From the IMG/VR virus record IMGVR_UViG_3300046739_000338, positions 1-58,209 of that record: a DNA stretch of 58,209 nucleotides. One strand, written 5' to 3'. This DNA comes from a virus (taxonomy: Duplodnaviria; Caudoviricetes). Shown piece after piece: positions 1 to 57,753 of the stretch. The notes under the pieces were generated by a model. It was not told the DNA's origin and did no database searches. It saw nothing but the letters and a program-made list of their open reading frames with translations. Numbering within the stretch: position 1 is the first letter of the stretch; every line of letters begins with the position of its first letter. Made by a program: the position numbers and the translations under genes.

Positions 1-127
1 CGCCATCGCCGAGAGGCCCAATTCACGGCCAGACAAGACCGTCGACAACACGGCTTCAGGCGTGCCGTAGGCGCTGAACAGGCGCGCCTTGAACAGCAAC
101 TGCGCCAACTGCACGGCCTGGTTCATG
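1..127. repeat. Terminal direct repeat (assembly overlap), copy 1
   Basis: 1-127 is identical to 58083-58209, and a - strand ORF reads through the junction in frame. Confidence 0.97.
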
Positions 128-1140
128 GACTGCGGCTCGAGTTGCCGTTCGTAATCGGCAGTGACTGGCGCCAGTGACAAGCGCGATGCTGGGGCCGGCG
201 AGACGTCTGGTTCGGGCTGCGGTGTGGGAGCTTTGGGTGCGACGCGGCGCGCCACATCGGCCACAAAGGCGCCGAGGGCATCCGTCGCCTGATCGGCCGT
301 CAATTCCTGCTCGATCGTCGGCATCGCTTCGTTGATATCAGTCATGATCGGATCCTCACTATCCGTGGGCACGCGCTCGGTGAGCACGGCGGCTAAGTCA
401 ATCGGCGCATCCTCGCGCAACGTCAACAACGCGCGCACCGTCGGCAGGCGTTCAGCGAAGGCGAGTAAGGCTGTCGCTTGCGCTGGCTTCACGGCGTTCA
501 GCTCGACTCCGGAATGAAGGACGGTATACAAGTCATCCAGATTCCCGAATTGCGCCAGCAACGCCGCGGCTCCCTTGGCTCCGATGCCTTTGACGCCAAC
601 CACGCCGTCGGACGCATCGCCAACCAGCGTCAGATAATCGCGGACCTGATCCGGCGTCACGCCGAACTTCTCCTTCACGGCGGCTGGATCCATCACGTTG
701 CCCGTCACCGGCGACTTCACACTGACGTGCTCCGTCACCAGCTGCAGCAAGTCTTTGTCCGCCGAGACGACCAGCACCGGCCAGGCGCCGACTCTCGCCT
801 GTGCCGTCGCACTCGCAATCACGTCGTCGGCTTCAAAGCCTTCCGCCATCCACTGCGGATAGCCGTCCGTCTTCAGCGTCTCCAGCGCAATCTCGCATTG
901 ATGAAAGAAGGGCGCCGGCTTCGATTCGCGCGCCGCTTTGTACGTCGCGTCCATCTCTTTGCGAAACGACGTCGGCGAATCCAAGCACAAGGCCACGTGC
1001 GGCTGGCCGCTCGCCAGGGCGCGCACCTTCGCGATGATGCCGATGGACGTCGCGTCCGGATTCGGATCATTGCTCGCCATGTGCCAGACAGGATGGGCAA
1101 TGGATGAGAAGTCGATGAGGACGATCGTCGGTTTATTCAC
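1..1140 (-). CDS. N-terminal part of a 5'-3' exonuclease (PIN/FEN + H3TH) fused to a RecT-like annealase; continues across the origin to 57753 (about 489 aa in total)
   Basis: Own translation from GTG 1140: MNKPTIVLIDFSS..FRKEMDATYKAAR..GFEADDVIAS..VVSADKDLLQLV..YLTLVGDASDGVVGVKGIGAKGA (PolA-type 5'-3' exonuclease motifs). No stop before ATG 126 (=58208). Missing from the ORF track because it runs off the window edge. Confidence 0.9.
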   Translation of the reverse strand, partial: MNKPTIVLIDFSSIAHPVWHMASNDPNPDATSIGIIAKVRALASGQPHVALCLDSPTSFRKEMDATYKAARESKPAPFFHQCEIALETLKTDGYPQWMAEGFEADDVIASATAQARVGAWPVLVVSADKDLLQLVTEHVSVKSPVTGNVMDPAAVKEKFGVTPDQVRDYLTLVGDASDGVVGVKGIGAKGAAALLAQFGNLDDLYTVLHSGVELNAVKPAQATALLAFAERLPTVRALLTLREDAPIDLAAVLTERVPTDSEDPIMTDINEAMPTIEQELTADQATDALGAFVADVARRVAPKAPTPQPEPDVSPAPASRLSLAPVTADYERQLEPQSMNQAVQLAQLLFKARLFSAYGTPEAVLSTVLSGRELGLSAMA

Positions 1141-1330
1141 CGTCGGACTCCAAGCTCGCCAGAAACGAATTCAAGCAATTGTCGGAACAGAAGTAGTAAT
1201 CCCCGCGCCGCGTCACGAAGAGAATCGGCTGCGGATGGTCGATGTCGTTCCCGCAGGTATCGCAGATGTGCCACTCGGGCGCGAGGCTGTCGTCCGTCTC
1301 GGCGTCCGGCTGATCGGCAAAGCGGCTCAT
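1133..1330 (-). CDS. Small TRASH/YHS-like metal-binding protein
   Basis: CDTC...YYFCSDNCL; overlaps both neighbours. Confidence 0.65.
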   Translation of the reverse strand: MSRFADQPDAETDDSLAPEWHICDTCGNDIDHPQPILFVTRRGDYYFCSDNCLNSFLASLESDGE

Positions 1331-1575
1331 ACGGCCTCCGCAGAAAACTCAGTGAGTTCCAAGCCCAGCGTCATGATGGCGTAGGCATTCGCCGCGGTCA
1401 GGCTGTCGAACGTCTGCGCAAAACGGCGGTCCTCCGTCCAATGCAGGTTCGGCGAGGCGAAGACGCCAGACGTCAGACGCACGGCATACTGCGTGCGCGC
1501 GGCCTTGACCAGTGCGGCTTCCGTCCGCGCCAAGGCTTTGGCTGTTTCGAAAAAGTGCCGTGAGATGTTGTCCAT
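1327..1575 (-). CDS. Hypothetical protein, probably leaderless
   Basis: 82-aa ORF; ATG lies 7 nt after a predicted -10 box. Confidence 0.65.
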   Translation of the reverse strand: MDNISRHFFETAKALARTEAALVKAARTQYAVRLTSGVFASPNLHWTEDRRFAQTFDSLTAANAYAIMTLGLELTEFSAEAV

Positions 1576-1582
1576 GGAAGAG

Positions 1583-1612
1583 AGCTTACACCTAAGCGCT
1601 TAGGCTTGTCAA
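1583..1612 (-). promoter_or_regulatory. Sigma70-type promoter containing a 14-bp palindrome (candidate operator)
   Basis: TTGACA (1612-1607), 18 nt, TAAGCT (1588-1583); CCTAAGCGCTTAGG at 1591-1604 in the spacer. Confidence 0.7.
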
Positions 1613-1618
1613 GTGCCC

Positions 1619-1774
1619 TCACCGGGCGACGCCGAGGAGCCGACAAATCGCCCAGGCGAGTCGCGACGTGTGCCGATACACGGCTTTCCGGATGATTCGC
1701 TGCGGGAGGCGCCCGCGCGCTACGGCATGCATATCGCCAAGCGCACGGGCAACCTGATACAACGCGCGTCTCAT
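1619..1774 (-). CDS. Small basic hypothetical protein (51 aa)
   Basis: MRRALYQVARALGDMHAVARG; ATGA overlap with the upstream stop. Confidence 0.6.
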   Translation of the reverse strand: MRRALYQVARALGDMHAVARGRLPQRIIRKAVYRHTSRLAWAICRLLGVAR

Positions 1775-2244
1775 TGCACGGAGTCCGCGCCGTGGGCCGT
1801 GTCTTTCAATGCCGACATCGCCATCAAGATCGCGTCGACTTTCGTTTCCAACCCGAGAGCTGCCGCGATGACACGCGCGCGTCTGAGCACGCTCGCCGCC
1901 CGCTCGCATTCACTGATCAGACTTTGCCGCGCCGCGTCTGGATTTTCACGCAGCGTATCGAGGCTCGTGTACCCTTGCTCGTTGCCCAACCGGCTCGGGT
2001 CTGGCACGTAGAACGGCGCCTTGATGGTGATGTCGTTGACGACCATCTGCACCTGCACGGTGCGGATCAGGACGCGCGCCTGATCGAGCCAGTAGTGCTC
2101 GGCGGCTTTCTGCACGTCCCAAGTGAAATGCTTGTGCAGTGGGCTGTCCGGTCGTTTGGCGTCGTTGACGACGCGCTCTGGCGTCAGACGCCCGTCGAGT
2201 TCAAGAAATTTCAGATGCTCACGCACGACTTTTGAAATACGCAT
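1771..2244 (-). CDS. Conserved phage protein, putative partner of the RAMP-like protein
   Basis: RBS GAAGGAG before ATG 2244; LTPERVVNDAKRPDSPLHKHFTWDVQKAAEHYWLDQARVLIR resembles a recurrent uncharacterised phage family. Confidence 0.8.
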   Translation of the reverse strand: MRISKVVREHLKFLELDGRLTPERVVNDAKRPDSPLHKHFTWDVQKAAEHYWLDQARVLIRTVQVQMVVNDITIKAPFYVPDPSRLGNEQGYTSLDTLRENPDAARQSLISECERAASVLRRARVIAAALGLETKVDAILMAMSALKDTAHGADSVQ

Positions 2245-2271
2245 GTGCCCCACTCCTTCATTTGTTGTTGT

Positions 2272-2870
2272 TGCCGGCCCAGACATGCCGCGTCTCACCA
2301 CGTCATTGCTAACCTCGCCTCGCCAGTCCTCGTCTGCACTGCCTTGTCTTGCCAGACGTTATCGGGTCATTCCATGCCACGCCAAAACCCGCCCCACGTC
2401 ACCGCGCCCGACCACGCCTCGCCTGCCGTGTCTCACCTCGCCAGATCAAGCCATAGCTCGTCGTGTCTTGTCGTGCCAATCCCCACCACGTCTGCCATGC
2501 CCGATCTGACCCAACCTCACCAGATCGACCCCACCGCGTCGGACCATGTCTGCCGTGTCTCGTCACGCCTCACCGGACCCGACCAAGCGTCACCGCACCA
2601 GATCTAGTCTCACCGCGTCTGCCACGCCATACCCAACCATGCGCCGCCGTGCCGTGCCGGACCCCAACACGCCCCGTCGCACCTCGTCTGCCGTGTCTCG
2701 CCTGACCCAGTCGCTCTCTACCCAGCCTGATCTGGTCGCACCGGGTCTCACCGTGTCCGCCTGCCTTGTCTTGCCCAGCCTCGCAGCACCTCGCCAAGGC
2801 GTGCTGTGTCTCGCCGCGCCGTGACGCATCTGCCGTGCCAATCTCGCCTTGTCCTGTCCGGCCTTGCCTT
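2272..2870 (-). ncRNA. GGY-NN pentamer array 2 (about 9 units; putative guide RNA precursor)
   Basis: 5-nt periodicity, e.g. 2692-2621 on - reads GGC A GAC GA GGT GC GAC GG GGC GT GTT GG GGT CC GGC AC GGC AC... Unit breaks (ctgcc on +) at 2339, 2423, 2492, 2550, 2619, 2688, 2761, 2830. The repeat is seen directly; RNA function is inferred. Confidence 0.75.
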
Positions 2871-3639
2871 ACGCCACACCCTTCAACTGCCGATGCTTCA
2901 GTTCCGTATCGAACCACGCCAGTAACGACATCGTCTCGTCGTCGTACGCCGACGGCGCCTCGATCGCCGCCAACTGCGCGGCCCGTCCCCCGTTCTGCAC
3001 GATCTCGAGAAACGTCGGATCGTCTTTGTCGACAATAGTGAACTGTCCGTACGACATCGCGCCCTTCTCAGGCCGTCCATCGCCGACGCCCGCCGTGAAC
3101 CCCGATGCGCCCAACAGGTTTGCCACCGCTTGCATCCGCATCAACGGCTGCACGAACGTCACCGTCAGCTTGCACGCCCACTGCGGCAGAATGGCGCGCG
3201 TCCGAATATCAGGCGTCCGATTCATGTCGGCCGACCGCACGGTCGTCATGAACAACTGCGGCACCCCGTAGATGCCGACCATGTCGCCTTCGACATACAC
3301 GAGCCGACCAATCTGCGCCTTCTTCGCGCCTGGCAGATCGAGCGCGGCCGTCTTCATCGCGCCCTTGAAGGCCGTGGCGAGGATGGCAATAGCTGTCGGC
3401 GCCGCCTCGTTGCTGAGCAGATAGGGCGACGATCGATATTCCGTCAACGGATCGTGCTTGAGTGTCGTGGCGCGTTCCATCGCGTTCTTGCGCCCGCGAG
3501 GCAAGAGCAGCTCGTGCTTCGCCTTCTCGGACATGCGGTTGCAGATCATCGGCGATCGGCCGAGGATGTAGAACTCTGCGCGGCCCTGTGAGACTTCGAT
3601 GATGTCGACGCTGTCGGATGTCGGTGTCTTCGGTTTCAT
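2869..3639 (-). CDS. Cas7/RAMP-like protein (RRM fold, G-rich loop); candidate RNA-guided effector
   Basis: Strand then GRSPMICN; ILATAFKGAMKTAA (RAMP-like KG helix); thumb-like insert VRSADMNRTPDIRTRA; C-terminal G-loop GFTAGVGDGRPEKGAMSYGQF; RBS AAAGGA. Confidence 0.75.
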   Translation of the reverse strand: MKPKTPTSDSVDIIEVSQGRAEFYILGRSPMICNRMSEKAKHELLLPRGRKNAMERATTLKHDPLTEYRSSPYLLSNEAAPTAIAILATAFKGAMKTAALDLPGAKKAQIGRLVYVEGDMVGIYGVPQLFMTTVRSADMNRTPDIRTRAILPQWACKLTVTFVQPLMRMQAVANLLGASGFTAGVGDGRPEKGAMSYGQFTIVDKDDPTFLEIVQNGGRAAQLAAIEAPSAYDDETMSLLAWFDTELKHRQLKGVA

Positions 3640-3672
3640 GTCGCTGTCCTTTGCTTGAAAAAGTTATCGCTT

Positions 3673-3963
3673 CTGCCTGCCACGCCTAACCTACCGTGCC
3701 CGGCCCCACCACGTCTGACCTCGCCTGCCCTGTCGCGGTCGCACCCAACCAATCCCAGTCCCGCCATGTCTGCCCCGCAGTGCCAAGTCATTCGCCACCA
3801 GGCCATTCCGAAGCTCGCCATGTCCCACCGTGTCTGCCGCGTCTTACCTAGCCCCGCGTTGCCAAACCCGACCACGCCCGGCCAAGTCTCTCCACGTCGG
3901 CCAAATCACGCCTCGTCGCTCCGCGTCAAAACTAACCTCACCAAATCACGCCGCGCCTTGACT
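3673..3963 (-). ncRNA. GGY-NN pentamer array 1 (5 units; putative guide RNA precursor)
   Basis: From 3962: GTC AA GGC GC GGC GT GAT TT GGT GA GGT TA GTT TT GAC GC...; unit breaks near 3898, 3834, 3770, 3725, 3677. Confidence 0.75.
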
Positions 3964-3969
3964 GAATCA

Positions 3970-3998
3970 GTTGTAATCGAAGTGTTTCGGTTTGTCAA
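3970..3998 (-). promoter_or_regulatory. Sigma70-type promoter for the array/RAMP operon
   Basis: TTGACA (3998-3993), 17 nt, TACAAC (3975-3970); predicted start about 3963. Confidence 0.75.
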
Positions 3999-3999
3999 G

Positions 4000-4146
4000 T
4001 CACGATTTGGATTTCACGGCAGGCGTCGGCTTGCTGCGCGGTCGTCCACCTAATTTCCCATTGCGTCGGCACGCCGCTGTCTTCGCGGGACTCGTCACGC
4101 GCCCACCAATTCTGCCGAGCGCTTGTGCATGAATGTTTTTGGCCAT
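4000..4146 (-). CDS. Small basic KGG/GGRP-type putative nucleic-acid-binding protein (48 aa)
   Basis: MAKNIHAQALGRIGGRVTSPAKTAACRRNGKLGGRPRSK. Confidence 0.7.
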   Translation of the reverse strand: MAKNIHAQALGRIGGRVTSPAKTAACRRNGKLGGRPRSKPTPAVKSKS

Positions 4147-4156
4147 AGTTATGGGA

Positions 4157-4185
4157 AGCCTAATCGAATCGGTTTCGTCTGTCAA
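4157..4185 (-). promoter_or_regulatory. Sigma70-type promoter
   Basis: TTGACA (4185-4180), 17 nt, TAGGCT (4162-4157), ATG at 4146. Confidence 0.7.
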
Positions 4186-4227
4186 CGGTGTCTATGTGTG
4201 GTAGGTCTCAGCCGTGGAGACGCCCGC

Positions 4228-4491
4228 ATGTTGCGGTTGCGATTCGCGCGCATTCGTTCCACACTAGCCGCCGTGCTGACGAACAAAGAAGCGACGTTGC
4301 AAAGTGTCGTCGAACATCTCGCCGCCGACGTCGCGGCCCTCGAACAAGAAGTCGTCGTCTATCGCGAAATGGTCCAGATCCTGATGGCGCAGAACGCCGA
4401 ACTGCTCAAACAACACGCCGCGCTGCGCCAGCAAATCGCCGACCGCCGCGACGAAATCCAACGCTACGTCGCCACGCAGATGCCCGCGTGA
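4228..4491 (+). CDS. Coiled-coil hypothetical protein
   Basis: GGAG RBS before ATG 4228; heptad-like LAADVAALEQEV..LLKQHAALRQQI. Confidence 0.65.
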   Translation: MLRLRFARIRSTLAAVLTNKEATLQSVVEHLAADVAALEQEVVVYREMVQILMAQNAELLKQHAALRQQIADRRDEIQRYVATQMPA

Positions 4492-5108
4492 CGCCGCTGG
4501 CCATCGACCTCTTCTGTGGCCTGGGCGGCTGGACGGAAGGTCTACTGCGTGCGGGCTATCGCGTCATCGGGTTCGACAACGAGCAGCACATCTACGGTGA
4601 GGCCCGGTATCCCGCGCAGCTCGTGATCCAGGACGTCCTGACGCTGCATGGTTCGCAGTTCAAGGCGGCGGCGCTGATCGTCGCGAGTCCCCCGTGTCAG
4701 GCGTATTCATATCGCGCGATGCCGTGGAAACGGGCGAAGGCCTTACCGACGCCGAGTAATGAACTCTTCGATGCCTGCTTTCGGATTCAGCGGGAAGCCT
4801 GCGAGGCGGCGGGGCATCACATCCCGCTGGTCGTGGAGAACGTCTGCGGGGCGCAGAAGTGGGTGGGGCGCGCACGGTGGCATTACGGGAGCTTCTACTT
4901 GTGGGGTGATGTGCCGGCGCTGATGCCGATGACGCTGAAGGCGATTAAGGGAGACGGGCGGAAACAGAAGGGCAGCGGTGCCGCCTGGTTCGACAACGGC
5001 ATTTGCAAATCAGGCAGCGCGAGTAAGGCTCGCAAAGCCGCCTCCGCGCACATCGCCAAGATCCCGCTGGCCCTCGCCACGCATATCGCCCAGGCGTGGC
5101 ATCCATGA
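4488..5108 (+). CDS. Short C5-cytosine DNA methyltransferase-like protein
   Basis: GTG 4488; DLFCGLGG (motif I), ASPPCQ (IV), VVENV (VI). Confidence 0.8.
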   Translation: MTPLAIDLFCGLGGWTEGLLRAGYRVIGFDNEQHIYGEARYPAQLVIQDVLTLHGSQFKAAALIVASPPCQAYSYRAMPWKRAKALPTPSNELFDACFRIQREACEAAGHHIPLVVENVCGAQKWVGRARWHYGSFYLWGDVPALMPMTLKAIKGDGRKQKGSGAAWFDNGICKSGSASKARKAASAHIAKIPLALATHIAQAWHP

Positions 5109-5497
5109 GCCACGGGCTGCGCTGGACAGAAGAAGAATACGCCGCGTTTCGCCGTCGCATGGATGGCCTCGCACCTCCGCTCCCGCTGCCCTTGCGGCCC
5201 CATGCCCAGCCCTTCGATCGCTTCATGGAGCTCTGCGCCGCGGCCAAGCTCCCCATTCCCGCCCGCGAAGTGCTGTTCCTGGCCGACCGGGATTTCCGCG
5301 CGGATTATTGCTGGCCCCTGCAAAAAATCATCGTCGAACAGCAAGGCTTTCGCGACCATTCGACGCGCAAAGGGCTCCAGCGCGATTACGAAAAAAGCAA
5401 TCTCGCGCAGGCGGCTGGATTCCGTTACTTCCAGTTCACGCCGAAGCAGCTCGCGATGGTCGAGACGATTGAGTGGCTGCGGGGACAACTGACATGA
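5105..5497 (+). CDS. Vsr/DUF559-like PD-(D/E)XK endonuclease
   Basis: RDFRADYCWPLQKIIVEQQG...RDYEKSNLAQAAGFRYFQFT. Confidence 0.75.
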   Translation: MSHGLRWTEEEYAAFRRRMDGLAPPLPLPLRPHAQPFDRFMELCAAAKLPIPAREVLFLADRDFRADYCWPLQKIIVEQQGFRDHSTRKGLQRDYEKSNLAQAAGFRYFQFTPKQLAMVETIEWLRGQLT

Positions 5498-6207
5498 CGC
5501 CGTATTACGACCATGCCGGGATTCAAATTTTCCACGGCGATTGCCGCGACGTCCTCGAAGAGTGGGAAGGCCTCCGCACCCAGAGCTTTGATCTGCTCCT
5601 GACAGACCCACCGTATGGGATCGGCGAGGCGAGAGGAAAGAACGCAAGCAGGGGCCAGCTAGCTCAGGCGACCGATTGGGGCATCAGCGATTGGGACGAT
5701 ATCCCGCAGGTGGAAGGCGTTGCCCGCGCGAGAGCAGTCAGCCGCTATCACATCATTTTCGGGGGGAATTACTATACGCTACCGCCCACATCGTGCTGGT
5801 TGGTCTGGGACAAAGATAACGGCGACACAGACTTCTCGGATTGCGAATTGGCATGGACGAATCTGCGGAAGGCCGTGCGGAAGCTCACCTATCGCTGGAA
5901 TGGCATGTTGCAAGCTCCTGGTTGTCCCAAGGAGCTACGATTACACCCGACCATAAAGCCTGAGCCGGTCATGCGCTGGGCGTTGATGCAAGCCCCGCCA
6001 GGCGTGCGGACGGTGCTCGATCCCTTTATGGGCAGCGGCACGACGCTGGTCGCGGCCAAACGCCTCGGCCGGCAGTGCGTCGGCATTGAACGCGAAGAAC
6101 GCTATTGCGAGGTCGCCGCCAAGCGTCTCGCGCAAGACGTCCTGCCGTTTGCGGACGACACCGTAGCAAACGAACGGACGCAGATGCCGTTGAGTTTGGT
6201 AGAGTAG
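5494..6207 (+). CDS. N6-adenine/N4-cytosine DNA methyltransferase (beta class)
   Basis: LTDPPYG precedes HPTIKP and VLDPFMGSGTT. Confidence 0.92.
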   Translation: MTPYYDHAGIQIFHGDCRDVLEEWEGLRTQSFDLLLTDPPYGIGEARGKNASRGQLAQATDWGISDWDDIPQVEGVARARAVSRYHIIFGGNYYTLPPTSCWLVWDKDNGDTDFSDCELAWTNLRKAVRKLTYRWNGMLQAPGCPKELRLHPTIKPEPVMRWALMQAPPGVRTVLDPFMGSGTTLVAAKRLGRQCVGIEREERYCEVAAKRLAQDVLPFADDTVANERTQMPLSLVE

Positions 6208-6302
6208 TGTCGGCGGGCGCCCGGCCAGGCCCCTGTCGCGTCGTGCTTATCTCACGACACGAGCCCGCCGCTTCTCTCACACCTAGATAAGAGGTGCTTC
6301 CC

Positions 6303-7487
6303 ATGAGTGATACTTCCTGGCACGTTCACCTGGACAAATCCGAGCGCGGCTTCCGTCCCACACTCAGTAATGCCGTCGCCGTCCTTCAACACGATCCAGC
6401 CTATGGCCCAGACGTTCTCTGGTATGACGAATTCCTCGATCGCGTCCTCACCCGCATCAATGGCGATGCCCCACGTGAGTGGCGCGACGATGACGACTAT
6501 CGCCTCACCGTCTACATGCAACAAACCATCGGCATCCCGTCCCTCTCGGATATCATCGTCGCCAAAGCCGTCAAGTATGTCGCCCATCAACGCGTGAAGC
6601 ATGTCGTCCGCGATTGGGTGCTGCCACTCCCGTGGGATGGCATCGACCGGGTGGACCATGCCTTCGAAGATTATTGGGGTGTCGACTGCAATGAGACGAT
6701 GCCCTGCGAATATGTCCGCGCCGCCAGTCGCAATCTCTTTCTCGGGATGGTGGCGCGCATCCTGCGGCCTGGCTGTCAACTCGATACGATGGTCGTCTTC
6801 GAAGGCGCCCAAGGCATCGGCAAAACCTCCGCCCTCCGCGTCCTCGGCGGACCGTGGTACGCCCTCGCCCATGAATCCGTCACCCGGAAGGATTTCTTCG
6901 AAGCCCTCCAAGGCAAGTGGGTCATCGAAATCGGCGAACTCGACGCCTTCAGTCGCGCCGAAGTCACCCGCGTCAAAACCGTCATCAGCACGCCGAGTGA
7001 CCGCTTCCGCGCCAGTTACGGCCACCGCGCGAATGACCATCCCCGGCAGTGCATCTTCGCCGGCACGACCAACCACGACGGCTGGGGGGCCGACGAAACG
7101 GGCCTCCGACGGTTTTGGCCCATTCGCTGCGGCGACGTGAACCTCGACGCGCTCGTCGCCTCACGGGATCAACTCTTCGCCGAAGCCCGCATCCTGGTGC
7201 TGGCCGGCGCGGAATGGTGGACGATGCCAGGCATGACACAGGCCATCCAAGCGGACCGCCAAGCCGACGATGCCTGGACCGACCTCATCTTCGCCGGCCT
7301 CGGCCTCGACACCGAAATCACCGTCGCCGAAATCCTCATCCGTATCCTCAAATTCGACGCCGCCCAAATTAACCGTGGTGACGAACTCAGGGTAGGACGA
7401 ATCCTCAGATTAGCGGGGTGGACGAAGAAAAACCTGACCAGAAATCGAAAACAAGCCAAAAGATGGGTAGCACCAGAAAATGGGTAG
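6303..7487 (+). CDS. VapE/virulence-associated-E family P-loop ATPase (replicative helicase-like)
   Basis: GAQGIGKTS Walker A, WVIEIGEL, FAGTTN, DETGLRRFWPI, RDQLFAEA. Confidence 0.88.
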   Translation: MSDTSWHVHLDKSERGFRPTLSNAVAVLQHDPAYGPDVLWYDEFLDRVLTRINGDAPREWRDDDDYRLTVYMQQTIGIPSLSDIIVAKAVKYVAHQRVKHVVRDWVLPLPWDGIDRVDHAFEDYWGVDCNETMPCEYVRAASRNLFLGMVARILRPGCQLDTMVVFEGAQGIGKTSALRVLGGPWYALAHESVTRKDFFEALQGKWVIEIGELDAFSRAEVTRVKTVISTPSDRFRASYGHRANDHPRQCIFAGTTNHDGWGADETGLRRFWPIRCGDVNLDALVASRDQLFAEARILVLAGAEWWTMPGMTQAIQADRQADDAWTDLIFAGLGLDTEITVAEILIRILKFDAAQINRGDELRVGRILRLAGWTKKNLTRNRKQAKRWVAPENG

Positions 7488-7632
7488 ACCAAGGGTAGAC
7501 CGCGTTTTTCGCGTTTCTAGGCCTCTTTTCTACTTACTCTACCCACTACCCTTACCTACCCTATGTGGGTACAACGCACGCGTAACTGTATAAAACTCGA
7601 TCTAGCCAGGGGTAGAGTAGGGTAGAGGGTAG
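7465..7632. repeat. GGGTAG/CTACCC hexamer cluster (candidate replication origin)
   Basis: GGGTAG at 7465, 7482, 7493; CTACCC at 7539, 7546, 7556; GGGTAG at 7610, 7620, 7627. Confidence 0.55.
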
Positions 7633-7695
7633 AACAGCCACGATTCTCATTGACAGCCTAGGTCCCTTCGCCTCACACTCCATGCCAACGCCCCC

Positions 7696-7929
7696 ATGAC
7701 GAAAACCGTCTGCGACCGCTGCGGCACCGATGCCCTCGACACCGTCATGGCCAAAGCCCATATCCGCTACAACGACGAACAGACCACCACTTGGGACCTC
7801 TGCAAAGCCTGCCGTAAAGCCCTCGACAGTGCCCTCGCTGACGCCATGGCGGGCACACAGAAGCCTAAACCCGCAGACCCCAAGGTCCAGGCCACCCCCG
7901 ACGTCAAAGCCGCGCCACGGCCCTCCTGA
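7696..7929 (+). CDS. Small zinc-finger protein
   Basis: CDRCG...WDLCKAC. Confidence 0.65.
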   Translation: MTKTVCDRCGTDALDTVMAKAHIRYNDEQTTTWDLCKACRKALDSALADAMAGTQKPKPADPKVQATPDVKAAPRPS

Positions 7930-7937
7930 GGCCTCCC

Positions 7938-8342
7938 ATGCCTGATGAGCCTGACCCCGTAAAAGAAACCCTTCCGAAAGCCCCCCGGCCCGGAGGCAAG
8001 TTTCGACCCGGCCAAGCCCCAGGCCCCGGCCGCCCCAAAGGCATCCCGAATAAAATCGCGTGGAAACAACGCGAAGTTGCAGCCCTCATCCTCGGCGAAC
8101 CCGGCTCGAAGGCGTTTCAGGAATTCGTCGCGCATGAGCGGGAAGAATGGAAGGCCGGCACGATGCATCCTGGCGTCAAGGTGCTCTGGTTGCACTATCT
8201 GCTTGGTAAGCCCACGGAAACGATTGACGTGCATGGCGAGATTACCAGCATGAAAATCGTGCGTATGACGCTCGATGAACAGACGCTCGCCCACGAGACG
8301 ATGCCCGCCGAATTGCAATCTGAACTCTTGCAGTTGCAATAG
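7938..8342 (+). CDS. terS: Putative terminase small subunit
   Basis: GKFRPGQAPGPGRPKGIPNK motif; immediately upstream of terL. Confidence 0.65.
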   Translation: MPDEPDPVKETLPKAPRPGGKFRPGQAPGPGRPKGIPNKIAWKQREVAALILGEPGSKAFQEFVAHEREEWKAGTMHPGVKVLWLHYLLGKPTETIDVHGEITSMKIVRMTLDEQTLAHETMPAELQSELLQLQ

Positions 8343-36869: not shown

Positions 36870-37099
36870 TCATCGGCTTCAACAAACCAGCAGGCATCGG
36901 CATGATCGCGCGCATCGACATCGTGAATGGTGACGAGATTTACCAAAATGTTCCAGTCATGATTCTTCGAGAAGCAACGGTTGAAGAATGGCTGGCGGAT
37001 GCGGTAGACCGCTACGGCGAACAGAAAGGGAGGGCTGTATTAGCAGAACGATTATCTCAGTTTCCAGGTGCTGTGTTTTACGACGTGAGCATTGATTAG
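36866..37099 (+). CDS. Small hypothetical protein (AT-richer insert)
   Basis: ATGA overlap; ILREATVEEW. Confidence 0.5.
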   Translation: MIIGFNKPAGIGMIARIDIVNGDEIYQNVPVMILREATVEEWLADAVDRYGEQKGRAVLAERLSQFPGAVFYDVSID

Positions 37100-37115
37100 C
37101 GTGGGGCTAATGACT

Positions 37116-38321
37116 ATGAAAAAGCTACTGTGGGTCGGAGACGCCGCGTGCCCCTCTGGGTTCGCGCAGGCGACGCACAAGACGCTCGAGACGCTGAAGG
37201 ACCATTACGACGTGACCGTCTTGGGAATCAACTACCGCGGCGATCCCTACGACTATCCTTATCCCATCTACGCCGCTGCCGCCGGCGGTGATCAGCTCGG
37301 GATCAACCGCCTCATCTGGATGTGCGCGAACTTCGAGCCCGACCTCATCGTGCTGCAGAACGACCCGTGGCAGATTCCGCTCTACCTGCGGCAGCTGCAG
37401 CAGTATCCCGAGCATCGGCACATTCCGGTCATCGCGTCGCTGGCCGTCGACGGGAAGAACCAGCAGGGGATGAACCACCTCAACGGCCTCTCGCTAGCCA
37501 TCTTCTGGTCTGAGTTCGGGCAGCGCGAGGCACGCAAGGCCGGGTATACGGGGCCGAGCACGGTCATTCCGCTGGGCGTCGACCTCGACACCTATTACCC
37601 GATCGACAAGACCCAGGCGCGGCTGAACCGCAAGCTCGACTTCGTCAAGGACAAATTCATCGTCGGCAACGTCAACCGCAACCAGCCGCGCAAGCGCTGG
37701 GACTTGACGATCGAGTACTTCGCCGAGTGGGTCAAGGCCGAGAAGATCAAGGACGCGCGGCTCTACTTCCACACGGCGCCGACGGGCGACGTCGGCTGCG
37801 ACGTCAAGCAGTTGGTGAAGTATTACGGCATCCTCGACATGTTGCTGCTGCGCGAGCCGCAGGTCTGGTACGGCGACTCCGATGAGGCGATGCGCGAGAC
37901 TTACAACTGCTTCGATGTCCAAGTGAGCACGACACAGGGCGAGGGGTTCGGCCTGACGACGTTCGAGGGCATGGCCTGCGGCGTGCCGCAGATCGTGCCC
38001 GATTGGGCGGCGCTCGGAGAGCACGCGAGGAACGCTGCACTGCTTGTGCCGTGCACGTCGACGGCCATCGGGTGGCCCTACCTGAACATCATCGGCGGCA
38101 TCGCGGATAAGGCAGGCTTTATCAAAGCACTGTCGTTGATGTATCACGACCACAACGTGCGTGAAGAGTTCAGAGCTCTCGGTTTCGTGCGTGTGATGGA
38201 CGATAAATTGCGTTGGCCGAACATCGGCGAGCGGTGGGTGAAAGAGCTGGCGCAGATCGAGGCCAAGCACACCGAGATCGAGTGGAAGGACCTCGGACGT
38301 CCAGAAGAGGTGACCACGTGA
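37116..38321 (+). CDS. Glycosyltransferase, GT4 (GT-B fold)
   Basis: NRNQPRKRWD, YNCFDV..GEGFGLTTFEGMACGVP. Confidence 0.92.
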   Translation: MKKLLWVGDAACPSGFAQATHKTLETLKDHYDVTVLGINYRGDPYDYPYPIYAAAAGGDQLGINRLIWMCANFEPDLIVLQNDPWQIPLYLRQLQQYPEHRHIPVIASLAVDGKNQQGMNHLNGLSLAIFWSEFGQREARKAGYTGPSTVIPLGVDLDTYYPIDKTQARLNRKLDFVKDKFIVGNVNRNQPRKRWDLTIEYFAEWVKAEKIKDARLYFHTAPTGDVGCDVKQLVKYYGILDMLLLREPQVWYGDSDEAMRETYNCFDVQVSTTQGEGFGLTTFEGMACGVPQIVPDWAALGEHARNAALLVPCTSTAIGWPYLNIIGGIADKAGFIKALSLMYHDHNVREEFRALGFVRVMDDKLRWPNIGERWVKELAQIEAKHTEIEWKDLGRPEEVTT

Positions 38322-57342: not shown

Positions 57343-57753
57343 TCACCACTTGATCTGCTCCTCATCGACCATCGGCTCGGCTGTCTTCGGCTGATAGCCA
57401 CTGCGGATTCGCGCCGCCCAGGCACGAGCGCGCGCCGCATCCAGCTCGTTGTAATGCTTCTTCGTTGGGTCCGCTTCCTTGCCGGCGAAGTAATCCAGCC
57501 GTGCCGCGACCAGATCCAAGTAGTCCGGTGGGCACTCGCTCATGTGGCGCCCTGTCATGTCCGGCCCGGTCCAGTCCTTCGGACTCTTGGCCTTGATGAG
57601 CGGGTCGCCATACTTGCTGTCAAGGTCGACGTGCAGCGCCACGTCATCGGTCGGTTTCGGCGTGGCGGCGCGCTTCGACTTCGACAGTGCCAACAGGGCT
57701 TTCAGCGTGGCATCGATGCTTTTGAGTAGGGCAATGTCGATGGAATCAGACAT
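57343..57753 (-). CDS. Hypothetical protein coupled to the recombinase, with an acidic-aromatic C-terminal tail
   Basis: TAATG overlap with the recombinase stop; ends DEEQIKW, reminiscent of an SSB C-tail. Confidence 0.65.
   Translation of the reverse strand: MSDSIDIALLKSIDATLKALLALSKSKRAATPKPTDDVALHVDLDSKYGDPLIKAKSPKDWTGPDMTGRHMSECPPDYLDLVAARLDYFAGKEADPTKKHYNELDAARARAWAARIRSGYQPKTAEPMVDEEQIKW

Follow-up and report, generated by a model that had tools for sequence, protein, structure and literature searches.

A probable VIPR module with tail-less, staggered pentamer arrays in the genome of a GC-rich soil phage

The stretch from 1771 to 3998 on the (-) strand of a 58-kb soil phage very probably corresponds to a VIPR (Viral Interference Programmable Repeat) module, that is, to a recently described CRISPR relative whose small protein reads guide RNAs composed of five-letter repeats (bioRxiv 10.64898/2026.04.26.720920, 10.64898/2026.04.26.720927). 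The kind of system is real and already described, and the locus adds one more member to the VIPR family, not a separate class of system. An earlier note on this DNA, made from its letters, had likewise suggested that it might be a further member and not a class of its own, and that view is borne out: VIPR is in print (bioRxiv 10.64898/2026.04.26.720920, 720927), and the protein encoded here is homologous to the Vipr of SUSP1. The window (the whole stretch of DNA that was analysed, 58,209 nucleotides) is the complete record of a GC-rich phage from soil, whose phage nature is evident from terminase, portal and primase-helicase genes; a 20-kb megablast against named phages returned no match. The locus has the minimal VIPR composition, a vipr gene with one accessory gene and with neither cas genes nor a CRISPR array, in a phage record, and its parts follow one another along the (-) strand in this order:

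3970..3998 (-): promoter-like site (TTGACA, 17 nt, TACAAC), about 8 nt upstream of array 1, read from the sequence
3677..3962 (-): putative vrRNA array 1, from the 5-nt lag spectrum, register parses and chain counts against surrogates
2869..3639 (-): vipr gene, 256 aa, from the open reading frame, homology to SUSP1 Vipr and an AF2 model
2275..2868 (-): putative vrRNA array 2, from the lag spectrum, register parses, chain counts and repeat family D1
1771..2244 (-): accessory gene (vap-like), 157 aa, an open reading frame with a GAAGGAG ribosome-binding site; phrog_15946

All five had been picked out in the earlier note, and a reading of the sequence and its open reading frames places each within a few bases of where that note had put it. 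Directly supported by the present analysis are the anatomy of the locus, the homology and fold of its protein, its conserved synteny and, at the level of the family, an evolution in which GG is conserved and NN varies.

The two arrays are defined by a repeat of five nucleotides. Of the 57 G[GA]Y sites in the region 3640-3999 (-), 33 are followed by another at +5, 7 by one at +4 and 3 by one at +6, and in the region 2240-2872 (-) a +5 partner exists for 75 of 111 sites; the corresponding figures for the vipr coding region and the 157-aa gene are 8/84 and 8/40. Across the window as a whole, chains of at least six units in one register number 14 on the (-) strand and one on the (+) strand, and 13 of these chains, each 6-13 units long, fall inside the two arrays; 50 first-order Markov surrogates contained 0.6 such chains on average and three at most. 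The 5-nt periodicity is thus far above chance and is confined to the two intergenic arrays, which also contain, on the strand of the gene and on its flanks, the four or more tandem YNNGG/GGYNN units by which VIPR arrays are recognized in the published work (bioRxiv 10.64898/2026.04.26.720920, 10.64898/2026.04.26.720927).

Array 1 resolves into units of 12, 12, 12 and 15 pentamers (3962-3903, 3898-3839, 3834-3775 and 3770-3696), separated by 4-nt GGCC/GGCA steps and followed by three extra pentamers. Array 2 holds approximately seven full units of 12-17 pentamers (starting at 2830, 2757, 2688, 2619, 2492, 2423 and 2334) and two short ones; its boundaries are mostly 4-nt GGCA steps within a semi-conserved GAGACAC-GGCA-GACRY-GGTG motif, which was found again as the six-copy direct-repeat family D1. 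Together the arrays comprise about 11 units of 12-17 pentamers of the ‘staggered’ kind, in which GGCAG and GACAC have one G in common. Register parses reveal no 3' tail or pseudoknot, the units abutting through their 4-nt steps. Array 2 is without clear RNA structure (z -2.15; of 100 shuffles, 4 fold equally well), and Rfam models, hammerheads included, found no match in 1500-4300 at E <= 1. The earlier note had described the repeat as a GGY pentamer; the period of five and a GGY majority stand (58% of 144 register positions), but GAY accounts for 29% and other triplets for 13%, and the repeat is better written GRY here because of that GAY share.

The identity of the protein rests on homology that spans its core. 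The 256 residues of Vipr comprise a RAMP core (15-206), with a thumb hairpin at approximately 128-151 and a G-loop at G184-P190, and a C-terminal helical extension (208-252) that is specific to the clade. When a profile of the family (68 sequences) was aligned by hhalign to the SUSP1 Vipr clade (35 sequences), residues 17-204 matched residues 1-189 of SUSP1 Vipr with a probability of 99.0% and an E-value of 3.9e-18 over 168 columns. A profile search of PDB sequences returned a single significant match, 36pp_D, ‘SUSP1 Vipr protein’ (E 1.3e-7; next E 1.4); phrog_4652 was the only PHROG assignment, and Pfam, PADLOC and NCBIfam yielded no match, and thus no Cas model either. In SUSP1 Vipr the GGY triplet is contacted by H17, R138, D177, W178 and R179, with W178 stacking on G2 (bioRxiv 10.64898/2026.04.26.720920, 10.64898/2026.04.26.720927). 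Three of these five residues are kept in the hhalign alignment (R138 as R148, D177 as D187, R179 as R189), each invariant or at least 90% conserved across the family, and two are changed, W178 to G188 and H17 to Asn34. The RAMP hallmarks named in the earlier note are accordingly placed: its AFKGAM helix aligns with helix-1 of SUSP1 Vipr, GVGDGRP with GVGDWRP, and R148 with thumb residue R138.

Structure prediction and a fold search, which that note had proposed as a check, agree with this assignment. The AF2 model (pLDDT 95.1, pTM 0.88) is a Csm3-like RAMP, with Csm3 among its Foldseek matches; 62 PDB entries matched at E <= 0.001, and every match listed is an effector entry of CRISPR type III, type VII or Cas7-11. 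Homology to SUSP1 Vipr, the predicted Csm3-like fold and the arrays described below for related loci together argue for the proposal that a RAMP protein would here polymerise on GGY/NN RNA, with VIPR as its likely match.

A survey of 108 related loci bears on the 5-nt periodicity that the earlier note had suggested looking for beside homologues: in 100 of them, chains of at least six units lie on the same strand as the gene and no more than 1.5 kb from it. Four of the eight loci without arrays have 70 nt or less remaining downstream of the match. Register slips in the related arrays are of 4 nt in 311 of 340 cases, and the stretches from one slip to the next are most often 8-13 pentamers long. 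That GGY is the conserved and NN the variable part, as had been proposed, is evident among near-identical relatives: between the loci L085 and L086, whose vipr DNA is 98% identical, mismatches at the five successive register positions are 1/73, 2/79, 7/79, 30/79 and 30/78, and the pairs L044/L045 and L068/L069 follow the same pattern. Fragments of the window's own arrays, recovered from four DNA runs, are all identical, and the variability of NN rests on these family loci.

The same survey distinguishes the accessory gene from the remainder of the neighbourhood. Immediately downstream of vipr, 90 of the 108 related loci carry a homologue of the accessory gene; for six of seven other neighbours tested the count is zero, and for the seventh, a methyltransferase, it is 3/108; among the neighbours tested, the accessory gene is the sole conserved one. 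Its product combines an N-terminal alpha/beta domain with a C-terminal helical hairpin (AF2 pLDDT 92.2), and has no match in Pfam or among PDB sequences and no similarity to SUSP1 vap1 by hhalign (probability 0.1%). Foldseek returned nothing for the model at E <= 0.001, the weak rows being winged-helix regulators at E 0.4-0.8, and in a wide VIA search the sole match was a generic helical hairpin (residues 100-157).

Two claims of the earlier note concerning the surroundings of the locus were modified. It had placed a promoter at 3998-3970, and the consensus resemblance (TTGACA, 17 nt, TACAAC) holds; the 58-kb window contains only two other sites of the form TTGACA-N16-18-TAnnnY, at 4185 and 1612, and these too are on the (-) strand. 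The site at 3998 is absent from the output of a consensus promoter scan because that scan demands a T at the last -10 position, and we infer a promoter from consensus resemblance only. The note had also stated that no nuclease gene is nearby, and a phage-type exonuclease gene (phrog_107) does lie at 1-1140 (-), but has a homologue in none of the 108 related loci. The accompanying statement that CRISPR repeats, cas1 and cas2 are absent was upheld, a repeat search of 1-8000 having returned no CRISPR-like family and neither these genes nor cas10 having been found.

From work on SUSP1 we infer how, at this locus, the RNA might be processed and filaments built, which skip rule might apply and how silencing might come about. 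Transcription would run leftward, probably beginning at the promoter-like site at 3998, and would take in array 1, vipr, array 2 and, last, the accessory gene; the arrays would be cut into about 11 vrRNAs of 12-17 pentamers at the 4-nt GGCA steps, where adjoining registers overlap by one base; the array design would be that of the published ‘staggered’ architecture, without a 3' tail. Processing of the vrRNAs must differ from that in SUSP1, since the window's units have no 3' tail or pseudoknot. Vipr protomers would polymerise on each vrRNA, one per pentamer, with the G-loop (D187, R189), the thumb (R148) and helix-1 (T89-A99) clamping the G-R-Y triplet and exposing NN. The exposed dinucleotides would then read double-stranded DNA, with one base skipped per unit, and such reading would silence a competing phage, satellite or prophage at the level of transcription, perhaps assisted by the 157-aa protein.

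Searches for targets say little, because of their low sensitivity. The 11 guides of the window, read with skips of 0-3 against the window and the 108 related loci, performed no better than shuffled guides, a trivial self match aside, and 302 guides of related loci, compared with the window and with one another's loci, equalled their shuffles. Six exact scans with the 1-nt-skip pattern, in which no mismatch was tolerated, gave 0, 0, 0, 1 (viral_contigs), 0 and 2 (metagenome_contigs) matches, where roughly one match was expected by chance in the viral_contigs scans, as a rough estimate from collection size. The viral_contigs match (L110; 20/24 positions, flanks 2/6, in a 30%-GC contig) and the two metagenome_contigs matches (flanks 1/6 and 0/6) were set aside as chance.

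The alternative that survives best, although unlikely, is a VIPR relative that shares the filament principle and differs in code or target (a relaxed G-R-Y triplet, another skip, or RNA targets), to which the SUSP1 rules would not transfer. The replacement of the G2-stacking Trp by G188, the GAY share of the units, the C-terminal helical extension of 50 residues that SUSP1 Vipr does not have, and a report of VIPR arrays that diverge in using GAC/NN and other scaffolds (described in the available text of bioRxiv 10.64898/2026.10.21.760802) all point in that direction, as does the failure of the 1-nt-skip rule to yield a target. However, the contacts made by D187, R189 and R148 are retained, and skips of 0, 2 and 3 are likewise blank beyond the self match, in searches whose blank outcome carries little weight. 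The mean GAY share is 0.20 for loci with Gly at the G-loop position (n=10), 0.09 for Trp (n=49) and 0.03 for Phe (n=22), but GAY use tracks subclade and not residue (L038-L042 have Trp with 45-50% GAY, L097 and L100 have Gly with 2-8%); no claim linking the residue to the GAY share is made, because the loci are interrelated and such counter-examples exist.

It is very improbable that what the phage carries is a functionless VIPR locus, inactive or in decay. Degenerate triplets (13% of pentamers), a unit of array 2 interrupted by a non-GGCA slip at 2525 and the loss of the stacking Trp would suit that explanation, but vipr and the accessory gene are both intact, each with a ribosome-binding site, the arrays are long and regular, with their 13 chains of at least six units, and the published caller itself tolerates internal degeneracy (bioRxiv 10.64898/2026.04.26.720920, 10.64898/2026.04.26.720927); moreover, Gly occupies the same position in 10 of the 108 related loci, nine of which have arrays of at least 20 register positions. 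The idea that the arrays are G-rich tandem DNA accompanying the gene (protein-binding iterons or recombination-prone repeats) and not RNA genes draws on the 24 runs containing locus DNA, none of which is recorded as RNA, and is exceedingly improbable, given arrays that keep to the gene's strand in 100 of the 108 loci (chains lie on the opposite strand in only three), GG that is conserved where NN varies, and a match to the SUSP1 arrays, which are guide RNAs by sequencing and cryo-EM (bioRxiv 10.64898/2026.04.26.720920, 720927).

As a probable VIPR module, the locus leaves the known kinds of system unchanged, and shows the tail-less, staggered architecture in well-preserved form in a soil phage that is rich in GC. 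Its approximately 11 guides, together with the natural replacement of Trp by Gly at a residue that contacts a base, offer a direct test of how strict the GGY scaffold is and of how staggered arrays are processed. We tentatively suggest, as a conjecture that may well prove wrong, that the window's clade is a distinct VIPR type, defined by a 256-aa Vipr with a C-terminal helical extension, a phrog_15946 accessory protein and tail-less staggered arrays; its pocket might be relaxed from GGY to GRY, a change tied in the window's subclade to loss or repositioning of the G2-stacking aromatic, and its units might be separated at GGCA overlaps by a processing route other than that of SUSP1.

Compared with the Cas7 proteins of CRISPR type III (Csm3/Cmr4), which are encoded in a cas operon beside a repeat-spacer array, the window's locus differs in having no such arrangement in 1-8000 (no CRISPR array, cas1, cas2, cas10 or match to a Cas model), and in a period of 5 nt rather than 6 nt, with a noncontiguous guide. 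VIPR itself was described in 2026, the published systems numbering 667 (bioRxiv 10.64898/2026.04.26.720920), and was tested mainly in two type II systems, those of Escherichia phage SUSP1 and a Pseudomonas fulva prophage (bioRxiv 10.64898/2026.04.26.720920, 10.64898/2026.04.26.720927). The locus resembles the SUSP1 system in its RAMP protein, homologous over the whole core with R148, D187 and R189 retained, in its GGY/NN pentamers, in its minimal two-gene module within a phage genome, and in having arrays both upstream and downstream of vipr, a re-reading of the SUSP1 locus likewise placing one array ahead of a two-gene pair and one behind it. It differs in the length of Vipr (256 aa with the C-terminal helical extension, versus 195 aa), in Gly for W178, in tail-less units staggered through 4-nt steps, in an accessory protein unrelated to vap1, in about 11 guides as opposed to four, and in a second array placed between vipr and the accessory gene; the invariant structured 3' tail on each vrRNA and the vap1 gene that characterize type II are both missing. 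To the non-canonical GAC/NN arrays, as the available text of their report presents them (bioRxiv 10.64898/2026.10.21.760802), the locus is similar in that GAC/GAT makes up 29% of its register positions, and dissimilar in that it mixes GGY and GAY within one array instead of using one fixed triplet. In array design, to judge from the legend of fig. S18 (10.64898/2026.04.26.720920), the locus is like the ‘staggered vrRNA arrays’ of other VIPR types, in which adjoining units overlap by one nucleotide, each unit's end thereby marking where the following one begins, just as GGCAG and GACAC share their G in the window.

The locus lies on the minus strand, and its architecture proved to be as the earlier note had observed it, with both arrays, the 256-aa gene, the 157-aa gene and the promoter-like site (the arrays and that site by sequence reading) in the places assigned to them, to within a few bases:

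3998-3970, minus strand: TTGACA-17 nt-TACAAC site, promoter-like only
3962-3677, minus strand: array 1, G-rich
3639-2869, minus strand: vipr open reading frame, 256 aa, with AAGGA upstream
2868-2275, minus strand: array 2
2244-1771, minus strand: accessory open reading frame, 157 aa, with GAAGGAG upstream

The 256-aa protein matched nothing in Pfam, PADLOC or NCBIfam, and its sole match in PHROGs was phrog_4652, of unknown function. Its family is large: a search of one collection recovered 2121 proteins at E <= 0.001, a second contains 1735 cluster representatives at 50% identity, and the nearest Atlas clusters are approximately 90% viral. When a profile of 68 diverse family members was compared with PDB sequences, the sole significant match was 36pp_D, 'SUSP1 Vipr protein' (E 1.3e-7; next E 1.4), from the Escherichia phage that carries a tested type II VIPR (Viral Interference Programmable Repeat). 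Comparison of that profile with one built from 35 members of the clade of the 195-aa SUSP1 protein gave 99.0% probability and an E of 3.9e-18 over 168 columns, aligning residues 17-204 of the window protein with SUSP1 1-189. Residues of SUSP1 Vipr that hold the GGY triplet are named in the available text of the structure preprint (10.64898/2026.04.26.720927); in the profile alignment, R138, D177 and R179 correspond to R148, D187 and R189 of the window protein, W178 to G188, and H17 to N34, and E71/M72 correspond to T89/A90, within the AFKGAM helix noticed earlier.

The two arrays displayed a marked five-nucleotide periodicity: 33 of 57 G[GA]Y sites at 3640-3999, and 75 of 111 at 2240-2872, have a partner at +5, as do 8 of 84 in vipr and 8 of 40 in the 157-aa gene. 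Across the window, 15 chains reach at least six units in one register, 13 of them within the two arrays; in 50 Markov surrogates such chains averaged 0.6 per sequence, the highest count being 3. A chain outside the arrays at 57547-57576 falls within a coding ORF; one further such chain is on the plus strand (6 units). Of 144 register positions, 58% have GGY as the scaffold triplet, 29% have GAY and 13% another sequence. The register parse gave units of 12-17 pentamers divided by 4-nt steps (GGCA nearly always, GGCC once); GGCAG and the following GACAC share one G, which gives a one-base overlap between successive registers. The unit boundary, GAGACAC-GGCA-GACRY-GGTG, is semi-conserved and was recovered by a repeat finder as a six-copy family, and 11 units in the window contain at least 10 pentamers. 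The same parse found no invariant tail between units of the window's arrays, and an Rfam search that included hammerhead models gave no match at the locus.

The analysis also covered 108 related loci carrying vipr homologues (26 from genomes, 80 from viral contigs, Gordonia phage ODay and Mycobacterium phage Quico). The five-nucleotide periodicity that the earlier note had proposed to seek around homologues was found: a gene-strand chain of at least six units lies within 1.5 kb of the vipr homologue in 100 of the 108, and in four of the other eight the available sequence ends within 70 nt downstream of the match. Chains elsewhere occur on the plus strand in 4 of the 108 loci and on the minus strand in 3. 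Register slips inside the arrays are 4 nt in 311 of 340 cases, with the pentamer runs between them peaking at 8-13, which makes staggered arrays the norm for the family of the window protein. A homologue of the 157-aa protein is found directly downstream of vipr in 90 loci, and the window's other neighbour genes in 0-3. The gap between the two genes is at most approximately 110 nt in most loci, roughly 200-580 nt in about 15 others, and 625 nt, filled by array, in the window.

Where near-identical vipr genes are accompanied by differing arrays, the changes concentrate at register positions 4 and 5: mismatches between loci L085 and L086 at positions 1 to 5 number 1/73, 2/79, 7/79, 30/79 and 30/78, and the pairs L044/L045 and L068/L069 display the same pattern. 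The L045 array (5848-6300) is almost pure GGC-NN, with 5848-5931 repeated at 6103-6186 and 5981-6014 at 6069-6102; this internal recurrence of whole units suggests array growth by unit duplication. In the actinophages Quico (L002; NC_028751.1 37686-38285) and ODay (L001; MW534375.1 10343-10972), the Vipr homologues are shorter and annotated as hypothetical proteins; both adjoin a homologue of the accessory protein, with 44 pentamer units upstream in Quico and 19 downstream in ODay, and the Quico module adjoins repressor, Cro and antirepressor genes.

At the G-loop position that aligns with SUSP1 W178 (188 in the window protein), the 108 loci variously carry W, F, Y, H or G, and the mean GAY share of their arrays is 0.20 with Gly (n=10), 0.09 with Trp (n=49) and 0.03 with Phe (n=22). 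The pairing of glycine at the G2-stacking position with 29% GAY units in the window is suggestive; a general rule is not supported, because the loci are related and hence non-independent, and because counter-examples exist (Trp loci L038-L042 at 0.45-0.50 GAY; Gly loci L097 and L100 at 0.02-0.08).

The 157-aa protein had no match in Pfam, PDB sequences, PADLOC or NCBIfam, and is unrelated to vap1, the SUSP1 accessory gene (hhalign probability 0.1%). Its structure model (pLDDT 92.2) combines an N-terminal alpha/beta domain with a long helical hairpin. Nothing significant emerged from fold searches; the weak matches were winged-helix regulators, and a wide search matched the hairpin only. Published VIPR accessory proteins, in the portion of 10.64898/2026.04.26.720920 available, are predicted DNA-binding proteins or nucleases.

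Vectorised scans found no guide targets in the window or in approximately 0.8 Mb of related loci, and three matches from collection scans (exact over 18-20 informative bases) were dismissed, their flanks being at chance level. This blank is weak evidence, because the scans were either small or restricted to exact matches.

The pattern TTGACA-N16-18-TAnnnY occurs at only three sites in the 58-kb window (4185, 3998 and 1612), all on the minus strand and at most 2.6 kb apart: one upstream of a small ORF, one upstream of array 1 and one downstream of the accessory gene. These may represent a set of early leftward promoters. Between the first two lies a strongly basic 48-aa ORF (4000-4146, minus strand; inside a 61-aa ORF), which had no PHROG or Pfam match and no homologue in the 108 loci.

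The record encodes a terminase large subunit, portal, primase-helicase, exonuclease and two DNA methyltransferases; comparison with named phages found no close relative. Since the exonuclease ORF (1-1140, minus strand) runs past the start of the record, and the window is the entire record for this genome, the contig is circularly permuted or slightly incomplete. A glycosyltransferase among the late genes (37092-38321, plus strand; phrog_2170, E 2.6e-37) is a possible host-surface-modifying moron. Positions 1771-4000 were found partly or wholly in 24 soil or rhizosphere runs from 24 studies (2023-2024), none on record as RNA; 14 of the 24 contain at least half of the sampled words, and five are possibly the source. 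Contig pieces from four runs have no listed differences from the window over the locus.

VIPR systems, of which 667 are published, have been described in preprints (10.64898/2026.04.26.720920, 10.64898/2026.04.26.720927 and 10.64898/2026.10.15.759431), and non-canonical scaffolds such as GAC/NN are reported in a further preprint, 10.64898/2026.10.21.760802. The legend of fig. S18 in 10.64898/2026.04.26.720920 describes staggered arrays with 1-nt overlaps, and the window's arrays share that overlap. The SUSP1 genome, when re-read, displayed four GGY/NN arrays (minus strand) around its 195-aa and 146-aa genes. Its type II system possesses a 3' tail and vap1, whereas the window locus has neither and is therefore not type II. 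By analogy with SUSP1, the arrays would be expressed, processed and loaded as RNA, and their NN dinucleotides would read dsDNA with one base skipped per unit. The cautious reading of the earlier note, of a new VIPR member rather than a new class, is right. The locus agrees with VIPR in structure, sequence, arrays, synteny and viral context, and is a genuine, intact module belonging to an already known kind of system.
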